The position numbers and the translations under genes were made by a program. The notes beneath the pieces are model-generated. The model had not been told where the DNA came from and made no database searches. It saw nothing but the letters and a program-made list of their open reading frames with translations. Of a DNA stretch of 64,000 nt, positions 3,573 through 63,173 are shown piece by piece; the stretch's first letter is position 1, and each line of letters opens with the position of its first letter. Source of the stretch: Bacillota bacterium. Lineage in GTDB: Bacteria; Bacillota; Clostridia; Acetivibrionales; JAMNXU01. Where the stretch lies: the NCBI GenBank assembly GCA_023623175.1, contig JAMNXU010000013.1, positions 3,933 through 67,932 on the forward strand, in the 5' to 3' direction.

Positions 3573-3629
3573 GGGACAGGGGAACCGTCCCCTTGTCCCA
3601 GCCCTTGTCCCATTCGGGGGAACCGTCCC
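3573..3629. repeat. GGGACA..TGTCCC 27-nt palindromic repeat: one full unit plus a fragmentary second copy
   Basis: gggacaggggaaccgtccccttgtccc at 3573-3599, then cccttgtccc / gggggaaccgtccc fragments. Fills the 115-bp spacer immediately after the RND gene stop codon (3638). Confidence 0.85.
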
Positions 3630-13641: not shown

Positions 13642-13698
13642 GGGACAAGGGGACGGCATGGGACAAGGGTGGGACACGGGGTCGGTTCCCCTGTCCCC
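13642..13698. repeat. GGGACA..TGTCCC repeat locus (two truncated units plus one full unit)
   Basis: gggacaaggggacgg, gggacaaggg, and gggacacggggtcggttcccctgtcccc. Confidence 0.8.
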
Positions 13699-18289: not shown

Positions 18290-18632
18290 TTAATTCGATT
18301 TATTGCGCTTCTGCCCCCACTGCTCAAGCCTGAGCGGAACATCTTCTCCTATTACTTTCATTTCCAGGAGTGATTGCAAAAAATCCGGCTGTTCCTTCAG
18401 ATATTCCATTGCTTCTGCTACCGTCTTTCCTCTTTCCTATAACTTCCCCCGATGCAAAGCCAAATTCATCAATGCCGTACATAAAAAGCGTGTAGTTACC
18501 TGTATCGGACATGACCCATTCTATAAAATCCACCACATATCTTACATTGGGCGATTCTGCATTAAATACTTTTAAGGTCTGTCTATCATTTTCCTGAAGG
18601 GACTCCTGCAGTGTATAAAATTTATGTAGCAT
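18290..18632 (-). pseudogene. Small cytoplasmic protein gene interrupted by a +1 frameshift (possibly immunity-protein-like)
   Basis: Frame 1 reads MLHKFYTLQESLQ...GFASGEVIGK and then becomes implausible. Shifting one nt within the A/G run at 18424-18438 gives ..GKTVAEAMEYLKEQPDFLQSLLEMKVIGEDVPLRLEQWGQKRNKSN-stop. The 343-nt span (3k+1) fits a single-nt insertion. Confidence 0.45.
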
Positions 18633-18787
18633 TTTTTACTTGCCTTTGCAATCTCTTTACTGACTTCCTTTAATCTCGCTTCATAATATGGATCAGCAAT
18701 ATCCGCTTCGTCCGATATAGAAGTCGGTATGGCAAATGTCAATGTTATGAGGTTTCTGCCACCGACAGTTGGTGCTGAAGCACAAAA

Positions 18788-27898: not shown

Positions 27899-27933
27899 GG
27901 GACACGGGGACACGGGGACGGTTCTCTTGTCCC
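27899..27933. repeat. GGGACA..TGTCCC repeat unit with an internal 8-nt duplication
   Basis: gggacacggggacacggggacggttctcttgtccc, beginning 5 nt after the mgtC stop. Confidence 0.85.
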
Positions 27934-29644: not shown

Positions 29645-29835
29645 ATTGTTGTAATATAGTGTATTATACTCAAATGCTCCCGGTCCATCAACGAAAAATA
29701 CGTTTTATTTTGTAATTTTTTGCTCTTCCTGCTAACGCGTCGGGAATTTTCCCGACTATAAGGTTGAAATCATTCATGAATGATATTAAAATTACGGGAT
29801 ATCCAAAAAAAATTATCTTAATTAAAAAGGTGCTT

Positions 29836-34710: not shown

Positions 34711-34771
34711 TAAATCCACCCCCGTTGGTTATCCGTCAGTGTTTTCTCAATATGCAAACGGGAATAAAAGA

Positions 34772-35654: not shown

Positions 35655-36632
35655 ATGATCAGGATAGGCATTGTCGGATACGGTAATCTTGGAAGAGGAG
35701 TGGAACTTGCGCTTAAGCAAAATCCAGACATGCAGCTTGTGGCCGTGTTCACCCGGCGTTCGCCCGGTGTAATAGGTGTAAGCGACAATAATGTGAGAGT
35801 TTTGCATGTTTCCGAAGCAGAAAAAATGAAAGAAGAAATAGACGTGATGATACTCTGCGGCGGCTCAGCCACGGACCTTCCGGAGCAGGGACCGTTATTT
35901 GCCGGTATGTATAATACCGTGGACAGTTTTGACACCCATGCGAAAATACCTGAATATTTCGAAAAAGTAGACCGGGCAGCCAAATCCGCCGGTAAAACGG
36001 GGATTATATCCGTGGGATGGGACCCGGGTCTGTTCTCCATAAACAGGCTGATGGCCGAAGCCATACTCCCCCGGGGAAAAGGCTATACATTCTGGGGAAA
36101 GGGCGTCAGCCAGGGGCACTCCGACGCCATCCGCCGCGTCAGGGGAGTGAAGAACGCGATCCAGTATACCGTCCCCATTGAAGAAGCGCTGGAAAAAGTG
36201 CGCAGGGGCGAAAATCCCGAGCTTTCCACGAGGGAAAAGCACCTCAGGGAATGCTATGTCGTGGCCGAAGAGGGCGCAGACAGGGCTGCCATTGAAAGGG
36301 AAATAAAAACCATGCCGAACTATTTCGCCGATTATGACACAACTGTGACTTTTATCACCGAGGAAGAACTCCGGAAAAAACACTCCGGCATGCCCCACGG
36401 CGGTTTTGTCATCCACAGCGGTATCACCGGCAATAACAACAAACAGGTAATTGAATTTTCCCTCAGGCTCGACAGCAACCCGGAATTCACATCGAGCGTG
36501 CTTGTCGCATATGCAAGGGCCGCATACCGCATGAATAAGGAAGGCCAGACCGGCGCAAAAACCGTGTTCGACGTCCCGCCGGCCTACCTGTCGCCCAAGT
36601 CCGCGGAACAACTGCGCGGGGAACTGCTGTGA
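35655..36632 (+). CDS. ddh: meso-Diaminopimelate D-dehydrogenase
   Basis: MIRIGIVGYGNLGRGVELALKQNPDMQLVAVFTRR matches the Ddh N-terminal Rossmann motif. 325 aa. AAAGGAGGAG RBS. Confidence 0.9.
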   Translation: MIRIGIVGYGNLGRGVELALKQNPDMQLVAVFTRRSPGVIGVSDNNVRVLHVSEAEKMKEEIDVMILCGGSATDLPEQGPLFAGMYNTVDSFDTHAKIPEYFEKVDRAAKSAGKTGIISVGWDPGLFSINRLMAEAILPRGKGYTFWGKGVSQGHSDAIRRVRGVKNAIQYTVPIEEALEKVRRGENPELSTREKHLRECYVVAEEGADRAAIEREIKTMPNYFADYDTTVTFITEEELRKKHSGMPHGGFVIHSGITGNNNKQVIEFSLRLDSNPEFTSSVLVAYARAAYRMNKEGQTGAKTVFDVPPAYLSPKSAEQLRGELL

Positions 36633-36949: not shown

Positions 36950-38569
36950 CTATTCTGTATCTATTCTCGTATTGCCGGATATAACCGAAGCGGTGGCTCC
37001 ATCCCTTGATACAATCGCGCCGGTTGTTTTATTGTTCGTTATTTGGACTCCCGTTGTTGCAGGCCACCTGTACTCGATGGAATTAGGATAATTGTTGAGG
37101 GTGTAGCAGGTATTATTGTCAATGATTGTGTCCGGAGCATTTTCTATACCAATTCCGACATCCCTTACCGTCTCTACGAAATTGTTTCTTATGATACATC
37201 CAGGATTCAGGTTGCCGGTGCCCATTCCAATGTATATTCCCCTCTCACTGTTCAATACCGTACAGCCTTCAATGACCACGCCGGTAGACCCGTTCCAGAA
37301 GTGTATCGCAGGTTCGGTCATCGCACCGCCCGGATTCACTATATTTTTAACAACACAGTTCCGTACCGTCCAGTTCCTGCACTTGTGACCGTCTATCGCA
37401 CAGGTATACCAATTTGCAACCTTTCCTGCGCTGAATTCAAACAGGCAGTTCTCAACAAGCCCGTTGTCCGAATAGGTGGATGAATAGCTTGGATTGGCGT
37501 CAGCGGACACTTTCAGCATCTGCTCGTATATATCCATAAAACGTACATTGCGAATTACGATGCCATCGGTATCATTTTCACCCGTTACCTGGATGCCGTG
37601 CCACCGGACATTCTTCAGTGTCATGTTTTCGCAGGTAAAGTTGTCAGCGTTTACCCAGAAAATGTGGCGTACCTTTGCCTGGGGAGACATTGCATCCCCT
37701 GTAAGTATGACATTATCCCTGTCCCTGGGAGAATTGCCGCGCACAGTTATATTTTCCGCTCTGATTGCAAAGGCTTCAGCTCCGATAGTGCTGAGGTCAT
37801 AGGTTCCATTGCTGCAGATGATCTCCATATGCCCGCCCACCGTGTTTGCAGTACTTATGGAGTAGCTCAGTTCCTGGACATTGCTGACATACACCGTCGA
37901 GTCAATATAAGTTACAACCAGCTCGGGATGTATGTCCTTATTGGGATTGTCCCTTGACGCAAAAACTGCATATGCCGGGCTGTCACCGGGTTTTTGTATA
38001 ATTTCCATTCCATAATTGGCATGAATACCGTCATACCAGGATCTCACCAAACCTGTGACATCCCATTCAACCCAACCTGTGGAATTAATGGTTAAAGAAC
38101 TGCTGACTTCAGGGGCATAGTCGCCTCCGGGTGTGGTCCAGTTATTTGTACCGTCACAGGTAGTCCATGTAACTCCCTTGTGATGTTTGTATTTCCAGTT
38201 ACCATTACCCTCCACCCATGAACGGGTAACCCGGTAAATCTCATTGGTGACTGTGCCGTTAACTTCAAGGCAATTCATCCTGAGCCTGGCCTCTTTGATT
38301 CTCTTGCCTTCAGGTATGGAAGACAGGTCGAACTCAATGAGAATTCTCTTTTCCTGTGTACCAGATACACAGGTTTGAATTTTTTTATCCTTTCCCCCGT
38401 TATCAAGACCCGACACGATCTGCGCGTCGGCAACGGGCTTCAAGGTAACTGTGGATTCTTCAATCACATTATCGGCTGTGACGGGAAAAAGGGTTGGAGT
38501 TGCAAAAAGGTTCACAGCAATCGCCATCAGCAAAATCATGTTAATTTTCACGAATAACTTTTTGTTCAT
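36950..38569 (-). CDS. Secreted protein: signal peptide + DNRLRE-type domain + right-handed parallel beta-helix domain (paralog 1)
   Basis: Signal peptide MNKKLFVKINMILLMAIAVNLFA. The N-domain carries ILIEFDLSSIP..ARLRM..IYRVTRSWVEGNGNWKY. The C-terminal ~330 aa beta-helix core is shared with 40792..41892 and 46242..47384. Confidence 0.65.
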   Translation of the reverse strand: MNKKLFVKINMILLMAIAVNLFATPTLFPVTADNVIEESTVTLKPVADAQIVSGLDNGGKDKKIQTCVSGTQEKRILIEFDLSSIPEGKRIKEARLRMNCLEVNGTVTNEIYRVTRSWVEGNGNWKYKHHKGVTWTTCDGTNNWTTPGGDYAPEVSSSLTINSTGWVEWDVTGLVRSWYDGIHANYGMEIIQKPGDSPAYAVFASRDNPNKDIHPELVVTYIDSTVYVSNVQELSYSISTANTVGGHMEIICSNGTYDLSTIGAEAFAIRAENITVRGNSPRDRDNVILTGDAMSPQAKVRHIFWVNADNFTCENMTLKNVRWHGIQVTGENDTDGIVIRNVRFMDIYEQMLKVSADANPSYSSTYSDNGLVENCLFEFSAGKVANWYTCAIDGHKCRNWTVRNCVVKNIVNPGGAMTEPAIHFWNGSTGVVIEGCTVLNSERGIYIGMGTGNLNPGCIIRNNFVETVRDVGIGIENAPDTIIDNNTCYTLNNYPNSIEYRWPATTGVQITNNKTTGAIVSRDGATASVISGNTRIDTE

Positions 38570-38678
38570 AACAATTCTCCTTTCCATTTATATCTCTTCA
38601 TTGATGTAACATTGATCCCCGGGCACAGGCCACTTTTGTACGGGCCACTTGGTATGCCTGGGCTTTCAGCCCTGCAAG

Positions 38679-38719
38679 GGCCATTAAATGATATGCATGA
38701 AGCATATCATTTAATGGCC
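38679..38719. other. Perfect 18-bp inverted repeat (5-nt loop) in the intercistronic spacer
   Basis: GGCCATTAAATGATATGC-atgaa-GCATATCATTTAATGGCC. Lies 17 nt downstream of the stop of 38736..40685 and ~90 nt upstream of the next gene's start. No T-tract. Confidence 0.6.
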
Positions 38720-38735
38720 ATATCATCATTTTTGC

Positions 38736-40685
38736 TTACCTGTATATGACAACCAGCTGCGGACGCAATGAAGGATTGGAAACCTCCCTTGATCTAAACC
38801 ATGCATAGGCATGTTTGTTGCTGGAAGGCTGCATCAGTATCATGCCGTAATTGGGATACGTGCCGTTATACCAGGAATTGACCAGGTCAGTAATATTCCA
38901 TTCCTTCCACCCGGTAGTACTGAATGTCAGTGAAGCGCTGACAGTTGAAGAAAAATCCCCGCCTGCCGCTGTCCAGTTGTTTGTGCCGTTATAGGTTGCC
39001 CAGGAGACACCGTTTGTAGCGTTATATCTCCAATCACCCGTACCTTCGACCCACGAACGCGTAACACGATGGATCTCGCTGTTGATTGTATTGTAAATAG
39101 TATCGCAGTACAGCCTTAACTTGGCCTCAATTATTGTTTTACCTGCGGGAATCGATGAAAGATCGAATCTCAACAGCGAACGTCTTTCAGGCTGTCCTGA
39201 AACATATACCTGAAGTTCAGAATCAGCTCCGCCGTTTCCCATACCGATTATAATCTGTGCATCGGCCACGGCATTAAGGGTTACAGTTACTGGCGATGAT
39301 GTCGGTGTTGGCACCGGACTTGGAGTTACTGTCGGCGTAGGAGTTATTGTGGGTGTGGGCGTTGGAGTCGGGGTTGGGGTTGGTGTAGGAGTAGAAGTCG
39401 GTGTCTGTGAAGGAACTGTGGATGCTGTAGGAGTCGGCGGAGGCGATCCGCTCACGTTGATCTGATAAACGTCAATACGGGGTTCTTCACCAAAGTTCTG
39501 GGCAATATACAGCCTTCCGGTCATGGGGTCGTACCCGGCTCCGCGGATGCCGGCGCTTCCGTCTGAATTCATTTCAGTAAGCTGCCAGACAGCATAAGGC
39601 TGTACTTCCCAGGATTGCTTCGTGCCATTTTTTACTGCGAGCAGGTCATTCGCGTCGTAGGCCCATACCTGGTGTACATAGGGATACGCGTGCCATCCCT
39701 TGGACGAGTCTGTGGGGTCATAACACCATACACCGCCCTCGGTAGGCTGGCCGTCAAGGGCCGGATTACTTGTACCAGGTCCATATCCCACTTTCCCTAT
39801 ACCATGTCTCCCTATGAAAAGTACACTTCGGCTTCCGGGCGGAAAAGCAATTCCTCCTATCCGGGTAGTTCCGTTAAAGAGAGGATTCTGGGCAGAGATA
39901 TCAGCCAGCGGATGATCAACAGGATAATAAAGAAGCTTAGTCCCCGGAACAGGGTTTTTCACTCCAACATCATCCGGGTCAAAAACAGCACAGGCAGGTC
40001 CACTTGAAGTAGTACTGATAACGTTGAGACAGCCGTTTCCTGTAAGTGCGGGTCCTCCCAGGAGTGACTGCCATTCCGTAGGAATTAGTGTCATCCATCC
40101 GCCAAGGGCACGTGCAGGCATTCCACCGGCGCTCATCGGATAAAAATGTGAAAAATCGTTGCTTACTGACAGGTCAAATCCGGAAACACCGAGTGATTTT
40201 GTTTGGTCCGGACTGTAGAATGTGGATGAACCAACAATTAGCCTCCCATTATAGGGCAGCATCCCGTAAATTACAGCGTCATATCCAATTTCATCCAGAT
40301 TCCCGTCCGTTATATCATAAAAATTCTGGAGCACATTCGCCATGGGAAGATTATTCCAATTCTGGCTTTTTACAAATGTCGAAGGGACTTCCACCTGGGC
40401 TACATAGCCGGGATACCAGGCATGTCCCTCCATAAAGAGGGTATGTTTGCCTGTGGACGGATCATAATATGGAGTAAGGCCGCTTCCGCCATAACCAAAC
40501 CTGGAACCGCCATAGGTCCCTGTCGGCAGGCGGAAAGCTCCGAGATATACGAAGTCCGAGCTCTGAACCAACGGCAGGGTGGTCGGATCATCCGCCCTGA
40601 CAGGCGGAGAAGGAAACACAAATGCCGTGATCAGAAATACCAACGCCAACAATAAACGCAGTGGCCTATGAATTTTTCTTTTCAT
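38736..40685 (-). CDS. Secreted protein: unplaced ~420 aa N-domain + Pro/Thr linker + C-terminal DNRLRE-type domain
   Basis: Signal peptide MKRKIHRPLRLLLALVFLITAFVFPSPPVRA. Linker PPPTPTASTVPSQTPTSTPTPTPTPTPTPTPTITPTPTVTPSPVPTPTSSP. The C-terminal domain carries SLLRFDLSSIP..AKLRLY..IHRVTRSWVEGTGDWRY. Start set at MKRKIH (AAGGAG RBS). Confidence 0.6.
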   Translation of the reverse strand: MKRKIHRPLRLLLALVFLITAFVFPSPPVRADDPTTLPLVQSSDFVYLGAFRLPTGTYGGSRFGYGGSGLTPYYDPSTGKHTLFMEGHAWYPGYVAQVEVPSTFVKSQNWNNLPMANVLQNFYDITDGNLDEIGYDAVIYGMLPYNGRLIVGSSTFYSPDQTKSLGVSGFDLSVSNDFSHFYPMSAGGMPARALGGWMTLIPTEWQSLLGGPALTGNGCLNVISTTSSGPACAVFDPDDVGVKNPVPGTKLLYYPVDHPLADISAQNPLFNGTTRIGGIAFPPGSRSVLFIGRHGIGKVGYGPGTSNPALDGQPTEGGVWCYDPTDSSKGWHAYPYVHQVWAYDANDLLAVKNGTKQSWEVQPYAVWQLTEMNSDGSAGIRGAGYDPMTGRLYIAQNFGEEPRIDVYQINVSGSPPPTPTASTVPSQTPTSTPTPTPTPTPTPTPTITPTPTVTPSPVPTPTSSPVTVTLNAVADAQIIIGMGNGGADSELQVYVSGQPERRSLLRFDLSSIPAGKTIIEAKLRLYCDTIYNTINSEIHRVTRSWVEGTGDWRYNATNGVSWATYNGTNNWTAAGGDFSSTVSASLTFSTTGWKEWNITDLVNSWYNGTYPNYGMILMQPSSNKHAYAWFRSREVSNPSLRPQLVVIYR

Positions 40686-40791
40686 ATTTGCCATCTCCTT
40701 TTTTAAATTTTTCATTTTCATTTTTCAACTTGTCTCTTCTCTCTGTCTCATTTCGCAATGTATTAAGTTCGCAATTGAATTGCCCTCTTTA

Positions 40792-41892
40792 TTACGGAAG
40801 CGGTATTTTGATATTGCCCGATACTTGTGAAGCGGTGGCGCCATCCCTGGATACAATATTGCCGGTTGTTTTGTTATTGGTTATCTTTGTACCTGTTGTT
40901 CCGGGCCACCTGTACTCAATGGAGTTCGGATAATTGTACGTATAGCAGGTATTATTATCAATCACGTTATTTGGAGCATTCTCTATGCCAATCCCGACAT
41001 CCCTTATCGTGGTAACCGTATTGTTTTTGATGGTGCAGTTGGAATTGATACTGTCGGTGCCCATTCCTATATAAATGCCTCTTTCGCTGTTTAATATGGT
41101 GCACCCTTCTATGGTAATACCCGTCGAGCCGTTCCAGAAATGTATTGCAGGCTCTGTTAAGGTTCCGCCGGGATTTTTGATATCTTTTACAATGGTATTG
41201 CGTACCGTCCAGTTTTTGCAATGGTGCGCGTCTATTCCGCAGGTATACCAGTTAGGTGCCTGTCCCGCACTGTATTCAAAAATGCAGTCCTCTATGAGGC
41301 CATTGTCAGAGTATGTGCTTGACTGGCTCGGATTGGCATCAGCAGACACTTTCAGCATCTGCTCATATGTGTCCATGAAGCGTACATTCCGGATCACCGG
41401 GGCATCGGCGTCATCTTCCCCGCAAATTTGTATTGCGTGCCAGCGCACATATTTTAACGTCATGTTTTCACACCTGAAATTGTCGCCGGTCACCCTGAAT
41501 ATTAGACGAACATTTGCATTGGGGGACATGGCGTCGCCCCTGAGAATAACATAATCCCTGTCGCCGGGCGTGTTCCCGCGTATTGTAATGTTGTCGGCAG
41601 TAATGTTAAAATGGGTAAGGCCAATGGAATTGAGGTTGTAGGTGCCGTTATTGCAAATAATTTCAACATTGCCGTCGCTTGCATTGGCATTGTTGATTGC
41701 GTTTCTTAATTGGGTTATATTGCTCACGTACACAGTAGAGGCACGGGTGGGCACATTTTCAGGCGAAAGCGAAGAATTGCCGATACCTGCTGCAGCAACA
41801 CATGTTCTTTCTGTGGAAAAATTAGATCCCAACATGGTAAAGACGGCAAACAGTAAAATCACACTCAGTTTTTTAACAGCTTTTTTGTTCAT
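40792..41892 (-). CDS. Secreted right-handed beta-helix protein (paralog 2, signal peptide only)
   Basis: Signal peptide MNKKAVKKLSVILLFAVFTMLG. The core shares RNVRFMDTYEQMLKVSADANPS, NWTVRN, TEPAIHFWNGSTG, NSERGIYIGMGT, YPNSIEYRWP and SRDGATAS with paralog 1. Confidence 0.65.
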   Translation of the reverse strand: MNKKAVKKLSVILLFAVFTMLGSNFSTERTCVAAAGIGNSSLSPENVPTRASTVYVSNITQLRNAINNANASDGNVEIICNNGTYNLNSIGLTHFNITADNITIRGNTPGDRDYVILRGDAMSPNANVRLIFRVTGDNFRCENMTLKYVRWHAIQICGEDDADAPVIRNVRFMDTYEQMLKVSADANPSQSSTYSDNGLIEDCIFEYSAGQAPNWYTCGIDAHHCKNWTVRNTIVKDIKNPGGTLTEPAIHFWNGSTGITIEGCTILNSERGIYIGMGTDSINSNCTIKNNTVTTIRDVGIGIENAPNNVIDNNTCYTYNYPNSIEYRWPGTTGTKITNNKTTGNIVSRDGATASQVSGNIKIPLP

Positions 41893-42532
41893 AACCATTC
41901 TCCTTTTCTCAAATATTTAATTTTTCTTTAAGCTTTTAATTTGAAAATGCTATTCCGTCTCAGTCGGCCCGGTTGAAATATTAATAAACAAATGAAATAG
42001 TAAAATTACGTAGTATTCCCTTCTCCGATATCACCTCCTGAATATTGGTATGCGGGGAATAAAATGCACCTCCTTTACGGTTTATTGGTTTATAAGTTAT
42101 GGTTTATAAGTTTATAATGTTAATAATATTGATAAAAAGCTGATAAATCCCTTATTGAGCCTGGATTGCGCGCCTGAAGCTGAGAATGATCATGAACACA
42201 ATGGTGCAAAAGATTAGCAATTAGAATTCGGCAAGAGAATGATATGCAACTGTCAAATTAATGAGTAACGGCAAGTTAAATTGTCAGATGATGTTTGATA
42301 ATGAAATTTGTCTATATCGATATTATACCACTATTTTGATTTTTGTTTATTATTTGGGAAATATTCAATAACCATTTGGGAAATAAAGGGCGGCTCTTCT
42401 GTCCGGGACAGGAATAAAGGAATCAGTCAAGAGAATGATTTGTATTTACATTCCGGACATTTATCTTACGATATCTTCCGAAACATAATTCCACATTTGT
42501 GTCTAACAGTCTTCAAAAGCGATGTCGTCACT

Positions 42533-44086
42533 TCATTTCTCTTTCCCGGCCATCCATTCATCCAGTTGGGTTTGTATTTCCTCCACCATCGGGTCGGTTA
42601 TTTTTTTCTGCGCGCTAAGAAAATCATCTATTTCTCCCGGTGTCAACTCCCCGTTCAGAACACTTGACTCAAACCTGCTACGGCTGTTGAAATCAAATTC
42701 GGGAAAACGTTCGCGAATTTTGACAATATCGATGGTAAAGCCAGTATGAGGGAAATATTTTGACCTGCTTTCGATGTATTGTATCCTTGCCTTTAGCTGG
42801 TCTTTATCCTGAAAATCCAGGTTATTGTTCACGATAAACCATGACCTGTGTATAACATTGTATATGCAGCTTTCATCGTAACCCTCGCGGGCAATAAGCT
42901 TTACCCGGTCCTTTTTGTCCAGCTTGTAATCCTTGCCTTTAATGCCGTACATAAATAGCCTGTATGCCTCTTTGTCGGTCATAAGCCAGTCCAGGAAAGC
43001 CAGGGCCCTTTCGGTGTTATTGGAATGGGAATTGAATATGACAATATTCCCGGGATCGAATGTTCTCTGGGTAATGCTTTCCGGATACAGGTCAAACTCG
43101 GCAAATTTGACCTGGACGCCCGATTCCTGCCTTATCTGTTCGCTAATTTTTTCGCCGTCGCCTTTATAACCAATTATTGAAGCATATTCCCGGAGCTTTA
43201 CGCCCTGGTTGCTAATAAATCCCCTGCTCCTCCATCTTCGAAGGGTCTCCAGGGCATTTCTGTACTCAGGGGTCTGCTTCCAGTCCATGAGTTTTATCGC
43301 GGGGTCGTCGGGGCGGTATACAAGTTCAATCTGGTTGTTGACCGCAATGGCATAACCGCCGGCCTCTGCAAACATTTCCAAAATAGATGGAGTTTTCGAA
43401 TAGAACGGCGTCAATCTTGTGGGAATCAATTCCGGTTTATTCTTTTTAACCAGTTCCAGAAAATTTTCGAACTCTTCGTAGCTGCTTATATTCTTTATCC
43501 TGAACTCTTCCAGCAGGTCTTCCCTGATTATGGCATGTAATCTCCTGGTGTCAGGCAGGTTATATGAAGGAACGGCTAAAATTTTGCCGTTAAAGGATAC
43601 TGTATCAAGCTCTTCCCTGGCAAACAGCCTGAAATAATTGGGAGCATTCCCAGCAAACAACTCTGTTATGTCTTTTATAAAGCCCGATTCGTAAAGGGTT
43701 TTTAAATCAAAAAATGACTTGCTGTTTTCATTTATAAACAACATATCACAAACGTTTCCATTTAATGCATACCAGGTATCGGGATCTACTTCGGCCACCC
43801 ATCCGCCGTCTTCCTTCTGAACCACCCTGAGGTTTGTTATTTCAATGTTAACATTCAGTTTTTGCTCCGCTTTCCTGTTAAGCTCCTTCAAAACTTCATC
43901 CAGCAACGTACTGCCATACACCGAAACGTACTGTGGAAAGTGAGGCGGCATAAATATATTGAGCGTAACTTTTTCCGGCTTTTTACCGTTTGTCCATTCT
44001 TCATTATTTGCTGCTTCCCTGGAACATGCAGTAATTTGGGTTAACAGCATGCCAACAATTAAGATTGTTAAAAACATTCTCTTCAT
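42533..44086 (-). CDS. Large extracellular solute-binding lipoprotein (ABC family-1 / LplA-like), orphan
   Basis: Lipobox LLTQITAC. 517 aa. The overall layout matches the ~500 aa sugar-binding lipoproteins of Firmicutes. No permease or ATPase gene is nearby. Confidence 0.65.
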   Translation of the reverse strand: MKRMFLTILIVGMLLTQITACSREAANNEEWTNGKKPEKVTLNIFMPPHFPQYVSVYGSTLLDEVLKELNRKAEQKLNVNIEITNLRVVQKEDGGWVAEVDPDTWYALNGNVCDMLFINENSKSFFDLKTLYESGFIKDITELFAGNAPNYFRLFAREELDTVSFNGKILAVPSYNLPDTRRLHAIIREDLLEEFRIKNISSYEEFENFLELVKKNKPELIPTRLTPFYSKTPSILEMFAEAGGYAIAVNNQIELVYRPDDPAIKLMDWKQTPEYRNALETLRRWRSRGFISNQGVKLREYASIIGYKGDGEKISEQIRQESGVQVKFAEFDLYPESITQRTFDPGNIVIFNSHSNNTERALAFLDWLMTDKEAYRLFMYGIKGKDYKLDKKDRVKLIAREGYDESCIYNVIHRSWFIVNNNLDFQDKDQLKARIQYIESRSKYFPHTGFTIDIVKIRERFPEFDFNSRSRFESSVLNGELTPGEIDDFLSAQKKITDPMVEEIQTQLDEWMAGKEK

Positions 44087-44133
44087 TTTTGATCTACTCC
44101 ATGTTTAATAACTCATGTTAATAACTCATGTCA

Positions 44134-45730
44134 TCAGTTCAGGTTTTTATTCACTGTTCTCCACTCGTCAAGCCGCTTTTGAATTTCCTGCAAAATCGGG
44201 TCGGTTATTTTTTTCTGCTCCTTTAAAAATTCATCCAGTTCCTCGAGTGTCTTGTTTCCTGCAACATAGGATCTCTCAAACCGTCTCCGGTCAGCACTGC
44301 TGAAATTGCTATAGCTCCGAAGAATACTGTTTATATCGATTCTAAAAGCCAGATGCGGCATATATCTCGATTTGCTCTCGACATACCTGCTTTTTTCCCT
44401 GAAAAGTTCTTCATCCTGGATATCCAGTTTGTTATTTACAAGGCTCCAGGATTTGTGAATGTTGAAATATATGTCGTTTTCCGTGTAACCCTCGGGAATA
44501 AGCAGCTTTACGTGATTTTTCTCATCAAGGGTGTAATCTTTTCCCTGGATCCCGTATACAAACAAATTGTAAGCTTCGCGGTCGGTCATGAGCCAGTCGA
44601 CGAAAGCCAGGGCCTTTTCGGTCTTTTCGGATTTTGAACTGAACACGACTATATTCCCCGGATCAAACGTCCTTGTTGTTATTAAATCCGGGTACAGTTC
44701 AAATTCCACAAATTCAGCCGGTTTGCCCGTTTCCTCCATTACAAGGTTGCTGATTTTTTCCGAATCACCCTTATAACTGATAATGGACGCATATTCCGAC
44801 CACTTTCTTTTATTCATGGACACGTCGGCATATCCTTTGCGCCTCCAATTCATAAAAGTCTCCACGCCCTTTTTGTATTCCGGCGTTTGTTTCCAGTCCA
44901 AAAGCTTAATGTCGGGATCATCGGTGCGATAAACAATTTCGAGGTCGCCGGATGACAGAATGGTATATCCTGCCGCCTCTGCAAATATATCCAAAACTGA
45001 GGGACCCGGCAGGTCAACACTTGTCGGCGCCGGTTTGAAGGGTGTTATCACCGTGGGTACCAGTTCCGGTTTGTTTTTTCTGACTTTGTCAAGGAGCTCA
45101 AATTCACTGAAACTTCCAATGCTGCTGATTTTAAGTTCTTCCGGCACGTCTTTCCTGATTATGGCCTGCAGTCTTTTTGTTTCAGGCAGGCTATAGGACG
45201 GAACGGCAAGGATTTTACCCTTGTATGATACGGTCTCAAGTTCTTCCCTGGAAAACAGGCTGAAATAATTGGGAGCGTTTTCAATAAATAATTGGGTTAT
45301 ATCTTTTATCTTTCCTTCTTCATAAAGGCTTTCCAGGTCAAACATCGCTCTGCTGTCCGCATTTATGGAACAACATGTCGCAATCGATTTTATCAAGAGC
45401 TTCCCCGGTATCTCGCCTGATTACAGCAGCCGAACCGTCTGCGCCGCTGACCAGGTCCAAATTGGCTATATTGATGTGGATATTCATCTTCTTTTCCGCT
45501 TTTTTGTTTAATTCCTCCAACACTTCCTTCAGCAGCGTATAAGCATACTGGGACAAATAATATGGCGGTTGCACAGGCATGTAAATATTGAGCGTAACTA
45601 TTTTTGACCTTTTGCCTGCCGCTTCCTCTTCACCTGAAGTTTTCCGGGAACATGCTCCAAGCTGGACCGCCAGGAGAACGATGAACATGAAAAATAACAA
45701 ATTTTTAATTTCCTTTTCATAAACTTTCAT
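44134..45730 (-). pseudogene. Paralog of the solute-binding lipoprotein, disrupted by a single-nt insertion
   Basis: ORFs 45338..45730 (signal peptide/lipobox LAVQLGAC...DCDMLFH) and 44134..45396 (..INADSRAMFDLESLYEEGKIKDITQLF..) are collinear with 42533..44086 (CDMLFINENSKSFFDLKTLYESGFIKDITELF). The frames join if one G of GG at 45367-45368 (+ strand) is removed. Confidence 0.75.
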
Positions 45731-45969
45731 CTACCCTGATATTAAGAACATCAACCGTATGTCTGTATACGACGCACAATAAAACTGGAAATGTCTATGA
45801 AATTATTATATTTAATATTTTTCGCGTGGTAAATGTGTATTAGTTACTATATTTTTACTTCCTGATACGGATTTTATTGTATAAATTGTACAAAAATATC
45901 CTCAAAAACAGAAATATAATCCTTCGCACTGAATTGGAAACAGAAAAACTATCCCGGTCATCCGCCGCT

Positions 45970-46154
45970 TTGAATTTAGAACAAAGGAATTTTTTTCATG
46001 TCCTGCTGCCCTGAATTTGTGACACACAAACCGTCCACGTATCCCCATGTGTACCACACCCTGAATTTGGGACAAAGGAACCGTCCCCGTGTCCCACTTT
46101 GAAAGAACCGTCCCCGTGTCCCACTTTGAGACAGAGGAACCGTCCCCGTGTCCC
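45970..46154. repeat. Tandem array of five GGGACA-family units in the 'aaccgtcccc' orientation
   Basis: The units show increasing decay toward the 5' side: cctgaatttgggacaaaggaaccgtccccgtgtccc, ctttgaaagaaccgtccccgtgtccc and ctttgagacagaggaaccgtccccgtgtccc, plus degenerate cctgaatttgtgacacacaaaccgtccacgtatcccc and ttgaatttagaacaaaggaattttt.. Confidence 0.85.
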
Positions 46155-46165
46155 GCCCTTGGACT

Positions 46166-46193
46166 AAAAAAACTTGGGGTATTCCCCCAAGTT
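46166..46193 (-). terminator. Rho-independent terminator downstream of beta-helix paralog 3
   Basis: Minus strand: AACTTGGGG-gaata-CCCCAAGTT followed by TTTTTTT. Confidence 0.7.
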
Positions 46194-46241
46194 TAATATA
46201 TAGAAGCTTGCTTGAATCGATAAAAGGCTGCTCTTGTTTTT

Positions 46242-47384
46242 TTAATCATTAAGTATCATATTGTCCTCGACCTTTGCAGCCGTTGCGCCGTCCCTTGCCA
46301 CAATTTTACCGTTTGTCCTGTTACCGGTGATTACGACGCCGGTAGTATCGGGCCAGCGGTATTCGATTGAGTTGGGATAGCCGGCCCCCGTGCGGCACTC
46401 GTTGCCTTCAATCACGGTATTCGGCGCGTTTTCTGCGGCTATGCTCACATCCCTGTTCGTCTCCACCCTGTTGTTGCGAATTACGGAGTCGGGACAGATA
46501 GTCCCGGTTCCCATGCCTACCATTATGCCTCTTTCACAGTTGGTTATCGTATTGCCTTCTATGAGAATGCCCGAAGAATTGTTCCAGAAATGTATCGCTG
46601 GTTCAGTCATATCCCCGCCGGGATTTACAATATCCTTTATTACATTATTCCTGACTGTCCAGTTTCTGCAGCGATGGCCGTCAATGGCGCAGGTATAATA
46701 TCCCGGGGCTTTGCCGGCGCTGTATTCAAATATGCAGTCCTCGATCAGGCCGTCGTCGGAATATATCTCAACATCCTCGGCGCCCCTGTAGGCCGAAACC
46801 TTTAACATCTGCTCGTATGTGTCCATGAAGCGCACATTGCGGACCACTATGCCGTCGGCATCCACTTCGCCGGCCACCTGGATCGCATGATACCGTACAT
46901 TTTTAAGCGTCATGTTTTCACAGGTAAAATTGTCTGCCCTGACCAGGAAAATATGCGTTACATTGGCCGTTTCAGACATGGCGTCGCCCGTGAGGATAAC
47001 CTTGTCCCTGCTCTCTTTCGATTCTCCCCTTATCGTAATGTTGTCGGCCTCAATAATAAAACCGCCAATATATATGGAATCCAGGTCATATGTACCGTTT
47101 GCCAGGACAATCTCCACGTTTCCGCCTTCCCTGTTGGCCTTTTCAATGGCTTCCATGAGCTCTTCGACTTTGCTGACACGAACAACGGGTTTTGTCGAGT
47201 AATGTTCAGGTTTTACCGGTGTATCCATGGCAGCCTCCCCATTTTTAGAATCTCCCGAAGTATTGCCGAAAATTCCGTCAAGCTTTCCGTTTAGCCCCAA
47301 TACAACTGCGGTAATAACAACCGCCACCACGACCAGCGCAATACCCGCATAAATCAGGTATTTCTTTGAATTCTTCCCGCTCAA
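46242..47384 (-). CDS. Membrane-anchored right-handed beta-helix protein (paralog 3)
   Basis: N-terminal single TM helix (YLIYAGIALVVVAVVITAVVLGL) instead of a cleavable signal peptide. The core shares RNVRFMDTYEQMLKVSA, NWTVRN, TEPAIHFWN, YPNSIEYRWP and RDGATA. Probable TTG start with an AAAGGAG RBS. Confidence 0.6.
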   Translation of the reverse strand: MSGKNSKKYLIYAGIALVVVAVVITAVVLGLNGKLDGIFGNTSGDSKNGEAAMDTPVKPEHYSTKPVVRVSKVEELMEAIEKANREGGNVEIVLANGTYDLDSIYIGGFIIEADNITIRGESKESRDKVILTGDAMSETANVTHIFLVRADNFTCENMTLKNVRYHAIQVAGEVDADGIVVRNVRFMDTYEQMLKVSAYRGAEDVEIYSDDGLIEDCIFEYSAGKAPGYYTCAIDGHRCRNWTVRNNVIKDIVNPGGDMTEPAIHFWNNSSGILIEGNTITNCERGIMVGMGTGTICPDSVIRNNRVETNRDVSIAAENAPNTVIEGNECRTGAGYPNSIEYRWPDTTGVVITGNRTNGKIVARDGATAAKVEDNMILND

Positions 47385-47502
47385 AACAGACCGCTCCTTT
47401 CAACTGCAGAATTAATCCCCGATAATATTTACATAATACCATTATACATAAATTCTCACCTGTAATTAATAATATTCAAAGTCCTATATTCGAACCGCTT
47501 TT

Positions 47503-47583
47503 GTTCCGGTGTCTGCATCCAGTCAATAAGCTTCATGTCGGGATCATCGACGCGGTAAACAATTTCGAGATTACCGGTTTCCA
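47503..47583 (-). pseudogene. ~80-nt remnant of a third solute-binding lipoprotein paralog
   Basis: The minus strand encodes GNLEIVYRVDDPDMKLIDWMQTPEQKR. This matches GDLEIVYRTDDPDIKLLDWKQTPEYKK (44134..45396) and IELVYRPDDPAIKLMDWKQTPEYRN (42533..44086). Nothing recognisable lies on either side. Confidence 0.7.
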
Positions 47584-47604
47584 GAAGGGGCTTTGTATCC
47601 CCCT

Positions 47605-47661
47605 GGGACACGGGGACGGTTCTTCTATCCCCCTGGGACACGGGGACGGTTCTTCTGTCCC
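47605..47661. repeat. Two tandem GGGACA-family units in the 'ggggacggtt' orientation
   Basis: gggacacggggacggttcttctatcccc and gggacacggggacggttcttctgtccc, each preceded by ccccct. Confidence 0.9.
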
Positions 47662-47716
47662 AAAACAAAACCAGGGGAGATTCTTATTCATGTTGACCGG
47701 CATAAGAACCTCCCCC
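47662..47716 (-). terminator. Probable rho-independent terminator of the hyd maturation operon
   Basis: Minus strand: AGGGGAGGTTCTTAT, 14-nt loop, ATAAGAATCTCCCCT (15 bp, one mismatch), followed by GGTTTTGTTTTGG. Confidence 0.6.
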
Positions 47717-47770: not shown

Positions 47771-47940
47771 GCGACAAGAAAACAATCCCTGTGTCATATT
47801 CTGCTATGAATTTGGGACAAAAGAACCGCTCCCTTGTCCCGTACCCTGCTACGAATTTGGGACAAGAGAACCGTCCCCGTGTCCCAAATTGGGACAAGAG
47901 AACCGTCCCCGTGTCCCAAGGGAACCGTGTACCAGGTCCC
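47771..47940. repeat. Array of 3 full plus 2 degenerate GGGACA-family units, orientation opposite to 47605-47661
   Basis: gggacaaaagaaccgctcccttgtccc (47814-47840) and gggacaagagaaccgtccccgtgtccc (47859-47885 and 47891-47917). Two units are preceded by ctgctaYgaattt. The array abuts the hydG stop codon (47942). Confidence 0.9.
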
Positions 47941-47941
47941 G

Positions 47942-49369
47942 TTAAAACCTCAAATCCCGCTCGCCGTTGCGAATTCGCTGCAGATATTCAATTGCGCGCT
48001 GTCTCTGCCTTTCATTGGGAACATTCTGTATCTCGCTGTCTATAAGCCTGCGGCCCATTTCCAACAGTTCATCGTCGGCATAATCCTGCAGATATTCCTC
48101 AAAGGTCAAAAGCGCATTGGGCAGGCAGCAGTTTTTAATCTGCCCCGATTTGGCCAGAGCCATGAACCGGTCGCCCGTCCTGCCTTCCCTGTAACAGGCG
48201 GTGCAATAACTCGGAATGTACCCGTCCCTTACAAGGCTCTTGAGCACATCAATGGGCTTCCTGTGGTCAGCAAGGTAAAACTGGGGCTTTTCATCCACAT
48301 CTTCATCTTCAGCGTAACTTTTCTTTGCGTAACCGCCGACGCCCACGCAGGAACCGGCGCTCATCTGGGAAATGCCAATATCCAGCAGTTCATTGCGGAA
48401 CTCGACTCTTTCCCTCGTTGACAGGATCATTCCCGTATAAGGTACGGCAAGGCGGATGGTAGCCACCACCTTTTTGAAATCCCTGTCGTTGACGAGATAC
48501 GGGAAAGACGAATAATCCACACCCTCCGCCGGCAAGAGCCTCGGGATTGAAATCGTGTGCGGACCGACGCCGGCGACAGCCTCAAGATGCTCCGCGTGCA
48601 TCAGCAAGGCGACCACTTCGTAGTGGTAATCGTAAAGCCCGAACAGCGGACCGATCCCCACGTCGTCAATTCCTCCTCCCAGCATGGCCCTGTCCATGGC
48701 CTCGGTATGCCACTCGTAGTCAGCCTTTGGACCGGAATGCATCGCAAGGTATGTGGGCTTGTGATAGGTTTCCTGGAACAGGGTGTATGTGCCGATCTTG
48801 GCTTCCTTGAGCTTTCTGTAATTTTCCTCCGTGGTTGCCGCAATATCTATGTTAATTCTGCGAATCGAGCCGTTTTCAAACTTCTCGCTGTAAATGGTAT
48901 TTATGCACTCAAGAATGTATTCAATCGGGCAGTTTTGGTCGTCTTCGCCGGCTTCCAGCAGGAGCCTCTTATGCCCCATTCGCTCCAGCGCACGGACTTC
49001 TTCCCTCAACTCCTCCTGGGACAGCCGGTGTCTCGCAATCTTGTTTGAACACTTGTAACCGCAATATTTGCAGTTGTTCACGCAGTAATTCGAAAGATAC
49101 AGCGGGGCGAAAATGACGATCCTCTTTCCGTAAATTGCCTCCTTGACTTCTTTTGCGATTTTGAACATCAGCCCGAGAGTTTCGTCGTCGTCCACTTCCA
49201 GCAGGACCGCAGCTTCGCGGTGAGTGAGGCCCTTGTAATTTCTTGCCTTTTCCAGGATCCTGTAAACTTCCGCCTTGTTTTTAACGAGCTTTTTCGCCTC
49301 ACTTATTGATTCCAGCACCTCGCCGTCATCAATATACTCGTTGCAGTCCATGGATTTTACGTTATACAT
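47942..49369 (-). CDS. hydG: [FeFe]-hydrogenase maturase HydG (radical SAM tyrosine lyase)
   Basis: 475 aa. Radical-SAM motif CVNNCKYCGY, and the C-terminal auxiliary-cluster motif CTACYREGRTGDRFMALAKSGQIKNCCLPNA. Confidence 0.92.
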   Translation of the reverse strand: MYNVKSMDCNEYIDDGEVLESISEAKKLVKNKAEVYRILEKARNYKGLTHREAAVLLEVDDDETLGLMFKIAKEVKEAIYGKRIVIFAPLYLSNYCVNNCKYCGYKCSNKIARHRLSQEELREEVRALERMGHKRLLLEAGEDDQNCPIEYILECINTIYSEKFENGSIRRINIDIAATTEENYRKLKEAKIGTYTLFQETYHKPTYLAMHSGPKADYEWHTEAMDRAMLGGGIDDVGIGPLFGLYDYHYEVVALLMHAEHLEAVAGVGPHTISIPRLLPAEGVDYSSFPYLVNDRDFKKVVATIRLAVPYTGMILSTRERVEFRNELLDIGISQMSAGSCVGVGGYAKKSYAEDEDVDEKPQFYLADHRKPIDVLKSLVRDGYIPSYCTACYREGRTGDRFMALAKSGQIKNCCLPNALLTFEEYLQDYADDELLEMGRRLIDSEIQNVPNERQRQRAIEYLQRIRNGERDLRF

Positions 49370-49457
49370 TTTATTACCCCTTTCAAAAATAAATTTGATT
49401 GCAATTTAACAGAATAAATCCGTTTGTTCTTTTGAATAATTCAATACCGGTCACTAA

Positions 49458-49537
49458 GGCTGACTCCGATTATTTCAGGCTAATCCCGGTTATTTCAGGC
49501 TGATTCCGGTTATTCCAGCCCGAGTCCGGTTATTTCA
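49458..49537. repeat. Four 20-nt tandem units copying the hydF 3' end, stop codon included
   Basis: ggctgactccgattatttca / ggctaatcccggttatttca / ggctgattccggttattcca / gcccgagtccggttatttca, then ggctgatttt (coding). The fourth unit contains the real hydF stop (49530-49532). Confidence 0.85.
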
Positions 49538-50780
49538 GGCTGATTTTATCCAAAATGCCGGACAGGTAGGCAATCGCGACGCCGTAATTGGTCATTGGCA
49601 CTTTCTGCCTCGATGCCCTGTCTATTCGTGAAAGCATGTACCTGCGGTTAAACATGCACGCTCCGCAATGGATGATCAAATCATATGATGACAGGTCCTC
49701 GGGGAAATCATTGCCGCTCACCACGTCCACAGTAAGTCCCGGTCCTACCTTGCGGCGCAGCATGGCGGGAATCTTTTCCCTGCCTATGTCCTCGCTGAGC
49801 GGCGCATGGGTGCAGGCTTCAGCTATAAGAACCCGCGAATTTTCCGTAAGGCTTTCAATGGCAGCGGCGCTTTCCGCGTAGTAATCAATATCGCCCTTGT
49901 ATCCGGCATACAGCACCGAGAAGGATGTAAGCCTGCTTTCGGCGGGTTTCTTTTCATACACGGTTTTAAAAACCTGGGAGTCCGTTATTATGACTGCCGG
50001 CGGCTCTTTCAGCGCGCTCAATGCTTCGTCGATCTTTTCCGCCGTTGTGCATATCACCATGCATTTTCTGTCCAGCAACTCCCTGATCGTCTGGACCTGC
50101 GGAAGAATCAGCCTGCCCTTTGGCGCCTGTATGTCCTGGGGCATGACGAGCAACACGGTATCGCCGTCGCTGACCACATTGCCCGTTATTAACGGGTTCT
50201 CATAATCTTCGGGCAGGTTCTCCAGTATAGCCTTGTAAATCCGGGAAACGACATCCTTATCCCGCGCGCTGACCGCGACAGGTCTGATGCCCGTACCCTT
50301 CTCAACAAGATCCTGCGCTGCTTTTACTTCGCTTGAACCATTCAGCATGTCGCACTTGTTCAACACCGTGATTACGGGAATATTCATCCTTCTAAATTCG
50401 GCGATCCATTTTTTCTCAATATCGAAAACGGAACTCTCCATACCGGTATCAGGCTTATTGCTAACTGGAACCAGTTTGCTCCCGTCGAATACTACGAGCG
50501 CAACATCGGTTTTAAGCGCAGCTTCCCGCGTCTTTTTCATCCTGAGCCCGCCTATCTCGCCTTCATCATCAAACCCGGCCGTGTCAATGAGCACGCACGG
50601 TCCTATCGGATGGATTTCCATCGACTTGTACACGGGATCAGTGGTTGTGCCGGCAATATCAGAAACCAGCGCCGTTTCATGCCCGGTGATCGCGTTGATC
50701 AGCGAAGACTTCCCGCTGTTTCTTCTGCCGAAAATGCCTATGTGCAACCGGTTGCTCCTGGGTGTGTTATTCAGACTCAT
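49530..50780 (-). CDS. hydF: [FeFe]-hydrogenase maturation GTPase HydF
   Basis: P-loop GRRNSGKSS, TTDPV, and the C-terminal cluster motif CTHAP...HCGACMFNR. Confidence 0.92.
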   Translation of the reverse strand: MSLNNTPRSNRLHIGIFGRRNSGKSSLINAITGHETALVSDIAGTTTDPVYKSMEIHPIGPCVLIDTAGFDDEGEIGGLRMKKTREAALKTDVALVVFDGSKLVPVSNKPDTGMESSVFDIEKKWIAEFRRMNIPVITVLNKCDMLNGSSEVKAAQDLVEKGTGIRPVAVSARDKDVVSRIYKAILENLPEDYENPLITGNVVSDGDTVLLVMPQDIQAPKGRLILPQVQTIRELLDRKCMVICTTAEKIDEALSALKEPPAVIITDSQVFKTVYEKKPAESRLTSFSVLYAGYKGDIDYYAESAAAIESLTENSRVLIAEACTHAPLSEDIGREKIPAMLRRKVGPGLTVDVVSGNDFPEDLSSYDLIIHCGACMFNRRYMLSRIDRASRQKVPMTNYGVAIAYLSGILDKISLK

Positions 50781-63114: not shown

Positions 63115-63173
63115 GGGACACGGGGACGGTTCTCCTGTCCCAGGTTGGGACATGGGGACGGTTCTCTTGTCCC
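63115..63173. repeat. Two tandem GGGACA-family units 22 nt upstream of the hydrogenase start codon
   Basis: gggacacggggacggttctcctgtccc (63115-63141) and gggacatggggacggttctcttgtccc (63147-63173). Confidence 0.9.

Follow-up and report, generated by a model that had tools for sequence, protein, structure and literature searches.

What is a bacterium likely to do with three related secreted beta-helix proteins whose genes alternate with those of solute-binding lipoproteins and lack any transporter gene nearby? The question is raised by a gene cluster on contig JAMNXU010000013.1 of a Bacillota bacterium (assembly GCA_023623175.1), of which a stretch of 64 kb, in the following called the window, was analyzed. 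All coordinates are positions in this window, and the cluster spans 36950-47587. Its seven features lie on the minus strand (list of open reading frames (ORFs); Table 1) and are transcribed in the order binding-protein remnant, 380-aa helix, broken binding-protein copy, intact lipoprotein, 368-aa helix, 661-aa propeller protein, 545-aa helix. An initial annotation, made from the sequence alone, proposed a role in processing a polysaccharide, and this is still the best reading: the proteins are secreted or surface-anchored, the helix cores fall outside the characterized families tested, and the DNRLRE modules are real and correspond to CBM96, a polyuronate-binding carbohydrate-binding module (CBM). 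The most fitting description is that of secreted, CBM-tagged proteins for the processing of a glycan, with two undescribed families at the core, a beta-helix family (A1) and a beta-propeller family (A2). We give about even chances to the proposal that A1 and A2 form an extracellular two-enzyme module acting together on an acidic, uronic-acid-containing exopolysaccharide (EPS) or matrix polymer; within it, enzymes acting on an extracellular glycan are likelier than the acidic nature of the substrate.

The three beta-helix proteins are close paralogs. Over ~325 aa, their cores share 62-70% identity (tblastn within the window, E 1e-126 to 1e-154), and the translations contain the shared runs that had been noted before (RNVRFMD, YEQMLKVSA, NWTVRN, TEPAIHFWN, YPNSIEYRWP and RDGATA) as well as three differing N-termini, namely a signal peptide with a DNRLRE-type domain, a signal peptide, and a transmembrane anchor. 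In Pfam, all three score above cut-off with Beta_helix/NosD (PF13229 and/or PF05048), and only these generic models matched. A search of a large protein collection with the 368-aa helix returned 677 relatives, ~40-50% identical apart from those on a few short contigs at 56-99%. They come from KSB3/Moduliflexus, Saprospiraceae and other Bacteroidota (with tails of the type IX secretion system, T9SS), Acidobacteriota, Desulfobacterota, Gamma- and Betaproteobacteria, Aegiribacteria and several groups of the candidate phyla radiation. Among the GTDB species representatives the family is present in 320 of 185,579 genomes, with a best match of 46% identity. On the short contigs with the nearest relatives, one A1 gene is followed by a sulfatase gene and one by a divergent helix paralog; no binding-protein gene lies beside them.

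When 35 A1 members are aligned, 36 columns prove invariant, many of them occupied by His, Asp, Lys, Arg, Tyr, Gln or Trp. They include H154, Q157, D176, Q180, K183, Y218, D223 and H225, as well as W230, H253, W255, R273, N293, Y329 and R330, and the invariant residues are kept in all three paralogs of the window. Most members also share a C-terminal '...GDLHL...DIGADE' tail, which is absent from the window clade. Because the family is large, conserved across phyla and invariant in so many columns, its conservation pattern fits an enzyme rather than a scaffold.

The model of the 368-aa protein (AlphaFold2, AF2; confidence score pLDDT in Table 1) is a confident beta-helix with a regular three-strand coil pattern. 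Searched with Foldseek against the PDB, it matched generic beta-helix carbohydrate enzymes at TM-scores (TM) of ~0.5 (best 0.54) and 10-16% identity. The top matches are the mannuronan C5-epimerases AlgE6 and AlgE4 (E 8e-7 to 2e-5 for the epimerase/lyase group); the others comprise a Paenibacillus alginate lyase (6kfn), GH87, GH28, PL6, phage tailspikes and RbmB. The best solved matches of A1 are all proteins acting on polysaccharides, mostly on those with uronic acids. With the A-modules of AlgE4 and AlgE6, 6kfn and PL6, which act on polyuronate, A1 shares the fold class and secretion, and it has an invariant Asp-x-His (D223, H225) on one coil together with the likewise invariant Y218 and conserved His, Lys and Arg. 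The D223-x-H225 pair may resemble the DPH(D/E) part of the catalytic Y...DPH(D/E) motif in the groove of alginate epimerases. In contrast to that group, A1 stands at 11-14% identity and TM ~0.5, gives no sequence-level match with its profile, and has no Ca-binding R-modules.

The helix also remains outside the characterized families of polysaccharide lyases (PL) and glycoside hydrolases (GH), as supposed in the initial annotation: Pfam, profile and Foldseek searches yielded no confident assignment. No family-level sequence match (Pfam, PDB profile) was found to PL1, PL3, PL6, PL9, GH28, GH87, CE8 or similar beta-helix families of carbohydrate-active enzymes (CAZymes), none of the 35 aligned members matched a family-specific Pfam model, and the A1 profile has no PDB match beyond a weak one of its N-terminal cap to CE8 esterases. 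Membership of the CE8 pectin methylesterases was considered and rejected, as the profile match (E 1e-3) covers 108 positions in the cap and first coils and not the catalytic region.

The second family is found in the 661-aa protein, which consists of a signal peptide, an N-terminal domain (aa ~45-425, nt 39447-40589), a Pro/Thr linker (nt 39288-39446) and a C-terminal CBM96/DNRLRE module (aa 508-658, nt 38748-39200). The ~420-aa N-terminal domain could not be placed in the initial annotation. Its model and relatives now place it in an uncharacterized beta-propeller family, A2, with 929 relatives at ~45-60% identity across phyla. These relatives often carry dockerin, SLH or T9SS tails, so A2 is extracellular. 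No Pfam domain is found on the relatives, and Pfam and NCBIfam find none in the window domain. The AF2 model is a confident all-beta propeller that Foldseek matches to generic propellers at TM 0.3-0.4; a PDB profile search gave nothing at E<=10, and there is no sequence or close structural match to the propeller CAZymes of PL22, PL24/25, PL42/GH145, GH43/62 and GH130. For A1 and A2 alike, we found no specific Pfam or NCBIfam model and no close solved structure.

Profiles of both families were searched against fetched loci, and the two turned out to be linked. A2 is the sole strongly recurrent neighbor of A1, mostly at position +1: it is adjacent to or fused with A1 in 17 of the 67 GTDB species loci having at least 1.3 kb of flank on each side. 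The reverse test covered 45 metagenome loci that were found with A2 and have room upstream; in 13 of them, A1 immediately precedes A2. Fusions of both domains in single ORFs occur in at least four loci and in both domain orders (A2-A1 in L045, L049 and L091; A1-A2 in L151). The order in the window, the 368-aa A1 gene and then the propeller gene, is the order seen in other phyla, and on one 22-kb contig the helix and propeller homologs are adjacent inside a Wzy/glycosyltransferase/aminosugar cluster. As both families are rare, adjacent to each other and independently fused in both orders, these arrangements are strong evidence that A1 and A2 proteins would work together. Literature searches yielded nothing relevant on the pair. 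Tandem paralog arrays are also found in both families elsewhere (L171:1398-1931; L105, L110, L137, L155); a second divergent beta-helix copy without signal peptide follows P0004, and two to three propeller genes stand in a row on soil and rhizosphere contigs.

The surroundings of A1 and A2 in other genomes fall into several kinds. In Proteobacteria and Desulfobacterota, the pair is found among genes for EPS synthesis and export (Wzy_C/DUF5935, GT2, GT4) in loci that also hold Poly_export, GNVR, a BBP2_2 porin and an AAA_22 ATPase. Degradative settings are seen as well: A1/A2 genes near SusC/SusD and a hybrid sensor kinase (L039), members adjoining sulfatases (L071 and L087), and a dockerin-bearing propeller among GH29, Pel9A-like, Cthe_2159 and CBM4_9 proteins (L089). 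Many members are solitary. Since both EPS loci and degradative settings are seen, A1 and A2 appear to occur in producers as well as in likely degraders of polymers. A further class of neighbors, hybrid two-component sensors of the kind found in polysaccharide utilization loci, was rejected; these neighbors belong to loci unrelated to one another and are histidine kinases and response regulators of a generic type, and the true hybrid is only that of L039. In one EPS export locus with BBP2_2 porin and AAA_22 ATPase (L036:12544-18453, from a metagenome-assembled genome (MAG) titled 'uncultured Enterobacteriaceae bacterium'), a 1970-aa protein of repeated lactonase-type seven-bladed propellers directly follows the A1-A2 pair. 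In three fetched loci (representative L028, a Moduliflexus MAG), an SBP_bac_3 gene comes right after the beta-helix gene; here, as in the SBP_bac_3-CE2 fusion of the window, binding-protein folds may have been adopted for binding carbohydrates or other ligands and not for transport.

A hint at the substrate comes from the accessory modules. The 545-aa protein consists of a signal peptide, a CBM96/DNRLRE module (aa 46-227, nt 37907-38452) and an A1 core (aa 215-544, nt 36956-37945), and the second DNRLRE-type copy previously reported in the 661-aa protein (IHRVTRSWVEGTGDWRY versus IYRVTRSWVEGNGNWKY) is genuine: the motifs are visible, and the two copies are 52-54% identical (E 1e-58, tblastn within the window). 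Both pass the NCBIfam model NF033679 (DNRLRE_dom, cut-off 34). PF24517 (CBM96) matches the 545-aa protein above its cut-off of 26 and is not listed for the 661-aa protein at E<=0.01. The module of the latter aligns to 7vbo with E 0.0016 and low identity; that of the 545-aa protein alone has no PDB match. The DNRLRE domain was first defined from Methanosarcina surface proteins (PMC2447325). CBM96 was demonstrated in 2022 to bind alginate chains internally, as a module of type B; lyases for alginate, hyaluronate and pectate carry it, and Arg36 is essential for alginate binding in its founder TM6-N4 (PMC9971899). In the alignment to 7vbo, with a numbering offset deduced from the Lys31/Asp34/Arg36 pattern, this position corresponds to the R of 'PERR' in the 661-aa protein, and in the paralog alignment the K of 'QEKR' in the 545-aa protein occupies it. 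The window modules thus share with TM6-N4 (from alginate lyase Dp0100, 7vbo) the passing of NF033679 and a basic residue at the Arg36 position; they differ in their low identity to 7vbo, and the remaining alginate-binding lysines lie outside the aligned region.

Each of the two window copies of CBM96 has the other as its closest relative. In the set of 35 helix homologs, the module is confined to the 545-aa protein of the window, a 663-aa propeller homolog has a different tail, and among the sampled relatives this genome alone has CBM96 on both partners. The sister modules argue that both partners may act on one polymer. The initial annotation had drawn a parallel to the Methanosarcina mazei disaggregatase, which is reasonable as an analogy because both would involve a uronic-acid matrix polymer: disaggregatase is secreted, combines DNRLRE-type modules with a beta-helix region, and acts on methanochondroitin, a uronic-acid-containing matrix polymer (PMC12369344; PMC2447325). 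Family membership does not follow. Disaggr_assoc is absent (E<=0.01), and the two scores for Disaggr_repeat, 32.3 and 35.7 bits, fall below and just above the cut-off of 33.9. The window proteins are bacterial and have a single module instead of tandem repeats, and their helix core is that of another family, widespread among bacteria.

Taken as a two-enzyme module, the system might work as follows. It would have been duplicated in this Firmicute and diversified by the location of each copy, with one helix freely secreted, one anchored in the membrane and one bearing CBM96, as does the propeller. Through their CBM96 copies, the two enzymes would be kept on one polymer. Successive coils of the helix line its groove with the invariant His, Asp, Lys, Arg, Tyr, Gln and Trp; there the chain would be bound, to be cleaved or epimerized by the helix, and a second activity, directed at this chain or at its products, would come from the propeller. 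The lipoproteins would be a lineage-specific and decaying addition, perhaps binding released oligosaccharides at the cell surface, with no transporter in the window. The sequence data establish the paralogy, the domain content, the secretion signals, the recurrent adjacency and fusion of A1 and A2 and the lack of a characterized relative; that the proteins are enzymes, that the substrate is acidic, that the two cooperate and that the binding proteins have a part in it is inferred.

Several observations weigh against this proposal. Members of A1 and A2 are known as sequences and predicted models, the fold matches are generic (identity of 10-16% for the helix, TM of at most 0.4 for the propeller), and no sequence-level link of either family to any PL, GH or carbohydrate esterase (CE) family was found. 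The genomic contexts are heterogeneous, and about three quarters of the A1 and A2 genes have no adjoining partner, so that pairing is frequent and not obligatory. In the window, no genes for polysaccharide synthesis or uptake lie beside the cluster. The acidic substrate is suggested by one characterized CBM96 member and a weak fold ranking. Finally, the idea that the lipoproteins capture released oligosaccharides has against it one broken copy, two remnants and relatives that sit in complete ATP-binding cassette (ABC) operons. A more far-reaching version is that A1 and A2 found two new CAZyme families and constitute an obligate pair on bacterial acidic exopolysaccharides, for example an endo-lyase or epimerase with a second lyase or hydrolase, used on the one hand by producers, where it is part of EPS loci, and on the other by degraders, among them this Firmicute; we put it forward tentatively, as somewhat improbable.

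The binding proteins call for separate treatment. The intact 517-aa lipoprotein itself has no Pfam match; against the PDB it matches Streptococcus pneumoniae glycan-binding proteins (E 8e-12). An exhaustive search returned 1554 related cluster representatives, of which 104 reached E<=1e-30. Built from 40 relatives, a profile gives a full-length match to 5swa/5mlt/5suo (E 5e-49) and weaker ones to Smon0123 and AlgQ1/AlgQ2, and SBP_bac_1 and DUF3502 are each found in 24 of the 40 relatives. By this profile match and the domains of its relatives, the lipoprotein belongs to the family-1, DUF3502-class binding proteins of oligosaccharide type; the earlier call of a solute-binding lipoprotein is secured by the same match and by the lipoboxes ITAC and LGAC. 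The characterized proteins of this type, the 5swa group, Smon0123 and AlgQ1/AlgQ2, are components of sugar ABC importers. The window protein resembles them (N-glycan binding protein 5swa/5suo/5mlt, Smon0123 5gub, AlgQ1/AlgQ2) in its length of ~500 aa, its lipoprotein signal and its profile match, and differs in that no transporter lies near the window copies and the nearest relatives are linked to MacB/FtsX-type ABC systems.

The closest homologs outside this genome, at 27-37% identity, do not stand beside sugar-importer permeases. In two loci (L084, L085) the binding-protein gene precedes genes for an HlyD-like protein, an FtsX/MacB-type permease of ~960 aa and two ABC ATPases. L086 has these genes at the start and the binding-protein gene at the end, with a 4-nt overlap with the preceding gene, and in L172 the binding-protein gene follows an ABC ATPase gene after a gap of 3 nt. 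From these arrangements the subfamily is, as far as gene order tells, normally part of complete ABC operons, of an unexpected type. A solute-binding protein with an exporter-type (MacB-like) ABC machine is unusual; we found nothing relevant in the literature on solute-binding proteins in MacB-type operons, and the DUF3502-type lipoproteins may represent a previously unrecognized partnership with such machines. In the window, a Pfam scan of all ORFs of at least 150 aa detected no ABC_tran, BPD_transp_1 or FtsX domain, so the earlier statement that the window has no ABC permease or ATPase gene holds, and no cognate permease adjoins a binding-protein gene. Because the closest relatives sit in complete MacB/FtsX-type operons, the window copies look like decaying orphans. 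For the binding proteins, and for them only, this is close to a possibility raised at the outset, namely that such genes normally occupy complete ABC operons and are here a rearrangement scar.

The state of the copies is in line with decay. The broken copy is 55% identical to the intact one over two matching stretches (45387-44161 and 45700-45368, tblastn), and its frameshift is a single extra C near 45368 ('TTC C ATA AAT'), which makes it either a very recent pseudogene or a sequencing error. The initial annotation was right about three lipoprotein copies, one intact, one frameshifted and one a remnant (93 nt); it did not list a fourth, weaker remnant near 18.4 kb (aligned part 18471-18569; E 1e-5 by tblastn, 1.5e-6 by phmmer), so copies of the gene must once have spread beyond the cluster. 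On one side, this remnant has the gene of an HGSNAT-type acetyltransferase (17467-18198), on the other a chromate-transporter pair. Within the cluster, the alternation of remnant, helix, broken copy, intact copy, helix, propeller and helix suggests that a binding-protein/helix unit was duplicated repeatedly as a block and then decayed. The binding-protein genes (42001-46000) have a G+C content of ~0.41, compared with 0.48-0.50 in the beta-helix genes and flanks, and no integrase or transposase gene lies near them. A short dispersed intergenic repeat with the core GAACCGTCCCCGTGTCCC occurs in 12 copies in the window (0 expected by chance), often as 'TTTGGGACAAGA GAACCGTCCCCGTGTCCC' in two to four tandem copies ~30 nt apart and in both orientations; it looks like a REP (repetitive extragenic palindromic) or MITE (miniature inverted-repeat transposable element) type of element and brackets the 380-aa beta-helix gene and the 47.5-kb remnant.

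The best-surviving alternative, which we consider doubtful, is that there is no coherent system at all: local tandem duplication and decay would have produced the cluster, and the binding-protein genes would be leftovers of a lost ABC operon with no tie to the enzymes. The frameshift and the two remnants speak for it, as do the complete operons of the homologs (HlyD-like protein, ~950-aa MacB/FtsX permease and two ATPases in three loci and two gene orders), the repeats that bracket part of the cluster, and the fact that no binding-protein homolog was seen beside A1 or A2 of other taxa in the fetched loci. Against it, the alternating order points to block duplication of a binding-protein/helix unit, and one copy is still intact with a good lipobox. 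A functional tie of the binding proteins to the helix and propeller enzymes is plausible. The alternative also covers the binding proteins only; the A1-A2 linkage is independently supported, and for the enzymes it is compatible with the two-enzyme module.

Unlikely in our view, and next in line, is a module that trims or modifies the organism's own surface polysaccharide or exopolysaccharide during growth or dispersal, in the manner of disaggregatase, and does not serve foraging. Hydrolases, lyases and epimerases that act on the producer's own polymer are typically encoded in EPS loci, as for alginate, Psl, Pel and cellulose. The A1-A2 pair of several Proteobacteria, placed among Wzy, glycosyltransferase, Poly_export and chain-length genes, resembles AlgL/AlgG, PslG, PelA and BcsZ in this respect; the likeness is one of context only, and the window lacks such neighbors: around the cluster, the Pfam scan detected no gene for a glycosyltransferase, for Wzx/Wzy or for export. 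The pair inside EPS synthesis and export loci of Proteobacteria and Desulfobacterota and the membrane anchor of one window paralog favor self-modification, as does the case of disaggregatase itself, which is secreted, has repeats of the DNRLRE type and breaks down a matrix polymer of uronic-acid type (PMC12369344). The relatives that bear dockerins or lie near SusC/SusD or sulfatase genes look degradative, and the missing Disaggr_assoc domain likewise counts against it.

That helix and propeller are non-catalytic surface adhesins or structural wall proteins is very improbable: such folds are frequent among adhesins and proteins associated with the S-layer, tails of the SLH, dockerin or T9SS type occur on relatives, and no catalytic motif of a known family was recognized, but both families are conserved unusually strongly across phyla (45-50% identity), have dozens of invariant polar and aromatic residues, form compact single domains of ~350-420 aa without repeats, and come with an appended carbohydrate-binding module, which is typical of enzymes.

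The features of the cluster and its surroundings are compiled in Table 1. The flanks are housekeeping genes, comprising purine synthesis genes with a resistance-nodulation-division (RND) pump, the diaminopimelate dehydrogenase, the [FeFe]-hydrogenase maturases, of which we take two to be HydG and HydE from their radical-SAM matches, and a V-type ATPase operon. Promoter and terminator scans gave background levels except for one strong hairpin 3' of the 380-aa gene. At 31.6-35.4 kb, Pfam agrees with the previous gene calls: a PL22 oligogalacturonate-lyase homolog (E 4e-77), a fusion of SBP_bac_3, CE2_N and GDSL, and a GDSL esterase. The link to pectin that had been drawn from them is weak, as it relies solely on these genes, which lie beyond the diaminopimelate dehydrogenase on the opposite strand. 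Next to them (29764-31542, +) is a gene whose 592-aa product joins regions 2 and 4 of an ECF-type sigma-70 factor, at its N-terminus, to an uncharacterized C-terminal extension of ~380 aa; it is possibly a regulator of the adjoining PL22/CE2/GDSL genes.

Table 1. Features of the cluster, its flanks and related loci. Positions refer to the window unless a locus is given.
Feature	Position	Strand	Evidence or remark
Binding-protein gene remnant, 31 aa / 93 nt	47495..47587	-	68% identical to frameshifted copy, E 1.5e-9 (tblastn); repeat family D7
380-aa beta-helix paralog, single N-terminal transmembrane anchor	46242..47384	-	Pfam, tblastn
Terminator-like hairpin, 10-bp stem and T run, directly 3' of 380-aa beta-helix gene	46170..46194	-	
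Binding-protein paralog, lipobox LGAC, +1 frameshift	44134..45730	-	55% identical to 517-aa copy
517-aa lipoprotein, intact, lipobox ITAC, family-1 solute-binding protein of DUF3502 class	42533..44086	-	
368-aa secreted beta-helix protein (A1)	40792..41898	-	AF2 model pLDDT 90
661-aa secreted protein (A2 + CBM96)	38736..40721	-	AF2 model pLDDT 92.7; NF033679 101.4 bits
545-aa secreted protein (CBM96 + A1)	36950..38587	-	CBM96 54.2 bits; NF033679 88.6; A1 profile 464
Fourth, weaker binding-protein remnant, outside cluster	18327..18635	-	corresponds to query aa 343-383
Repeat array, core GAACCGTCCCCGTGTCCC	46045..46186		strand not assigned; more at 47591-47664 (inverted), 47835-47922
Other repeat copies	3582-3599, 13671-13688, 27907-27924, 63115-63164		
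Lipoprotein fusing amino-acid-type binding domain SBP_bac_3 to CE2 esterase (CE2_N + GDSL)	32911-34719	-	
Diaminopimelate dehydrogenase	35655-36632	+	
Three [FeFe]-hydrogenase maturases	47942-51910		
Binding-protein/MacB-type operons in fetched loci	L084:7719-15028, L085:1594-8903, L086:3259-10288, L172:3-2183		

The A1-A2 core of the cluster is thus of more interest than the initial annotation described, and its periphery, the binding proteins and the pectin link, is less coherent. The cluster offers a lead to two families of carbohydrate-active enzymes that may be new. The fused forms and the CBM96-tagged cluster offer clear constructs for expression, and the gain is a defined target pair, not a new principle. 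If the pair is enzymatic, two widespread and as yet unnamed families, hosted by sludge, sediment and soil bacteria, lineages of the candidate phyla radiation and Firmicutes, would join the enzymes for making or degrading exopolysaccharides of bacteria, which are sought for the dispersal of biofilms and for understanding the cohesion of sludge granules and soil aggregates.

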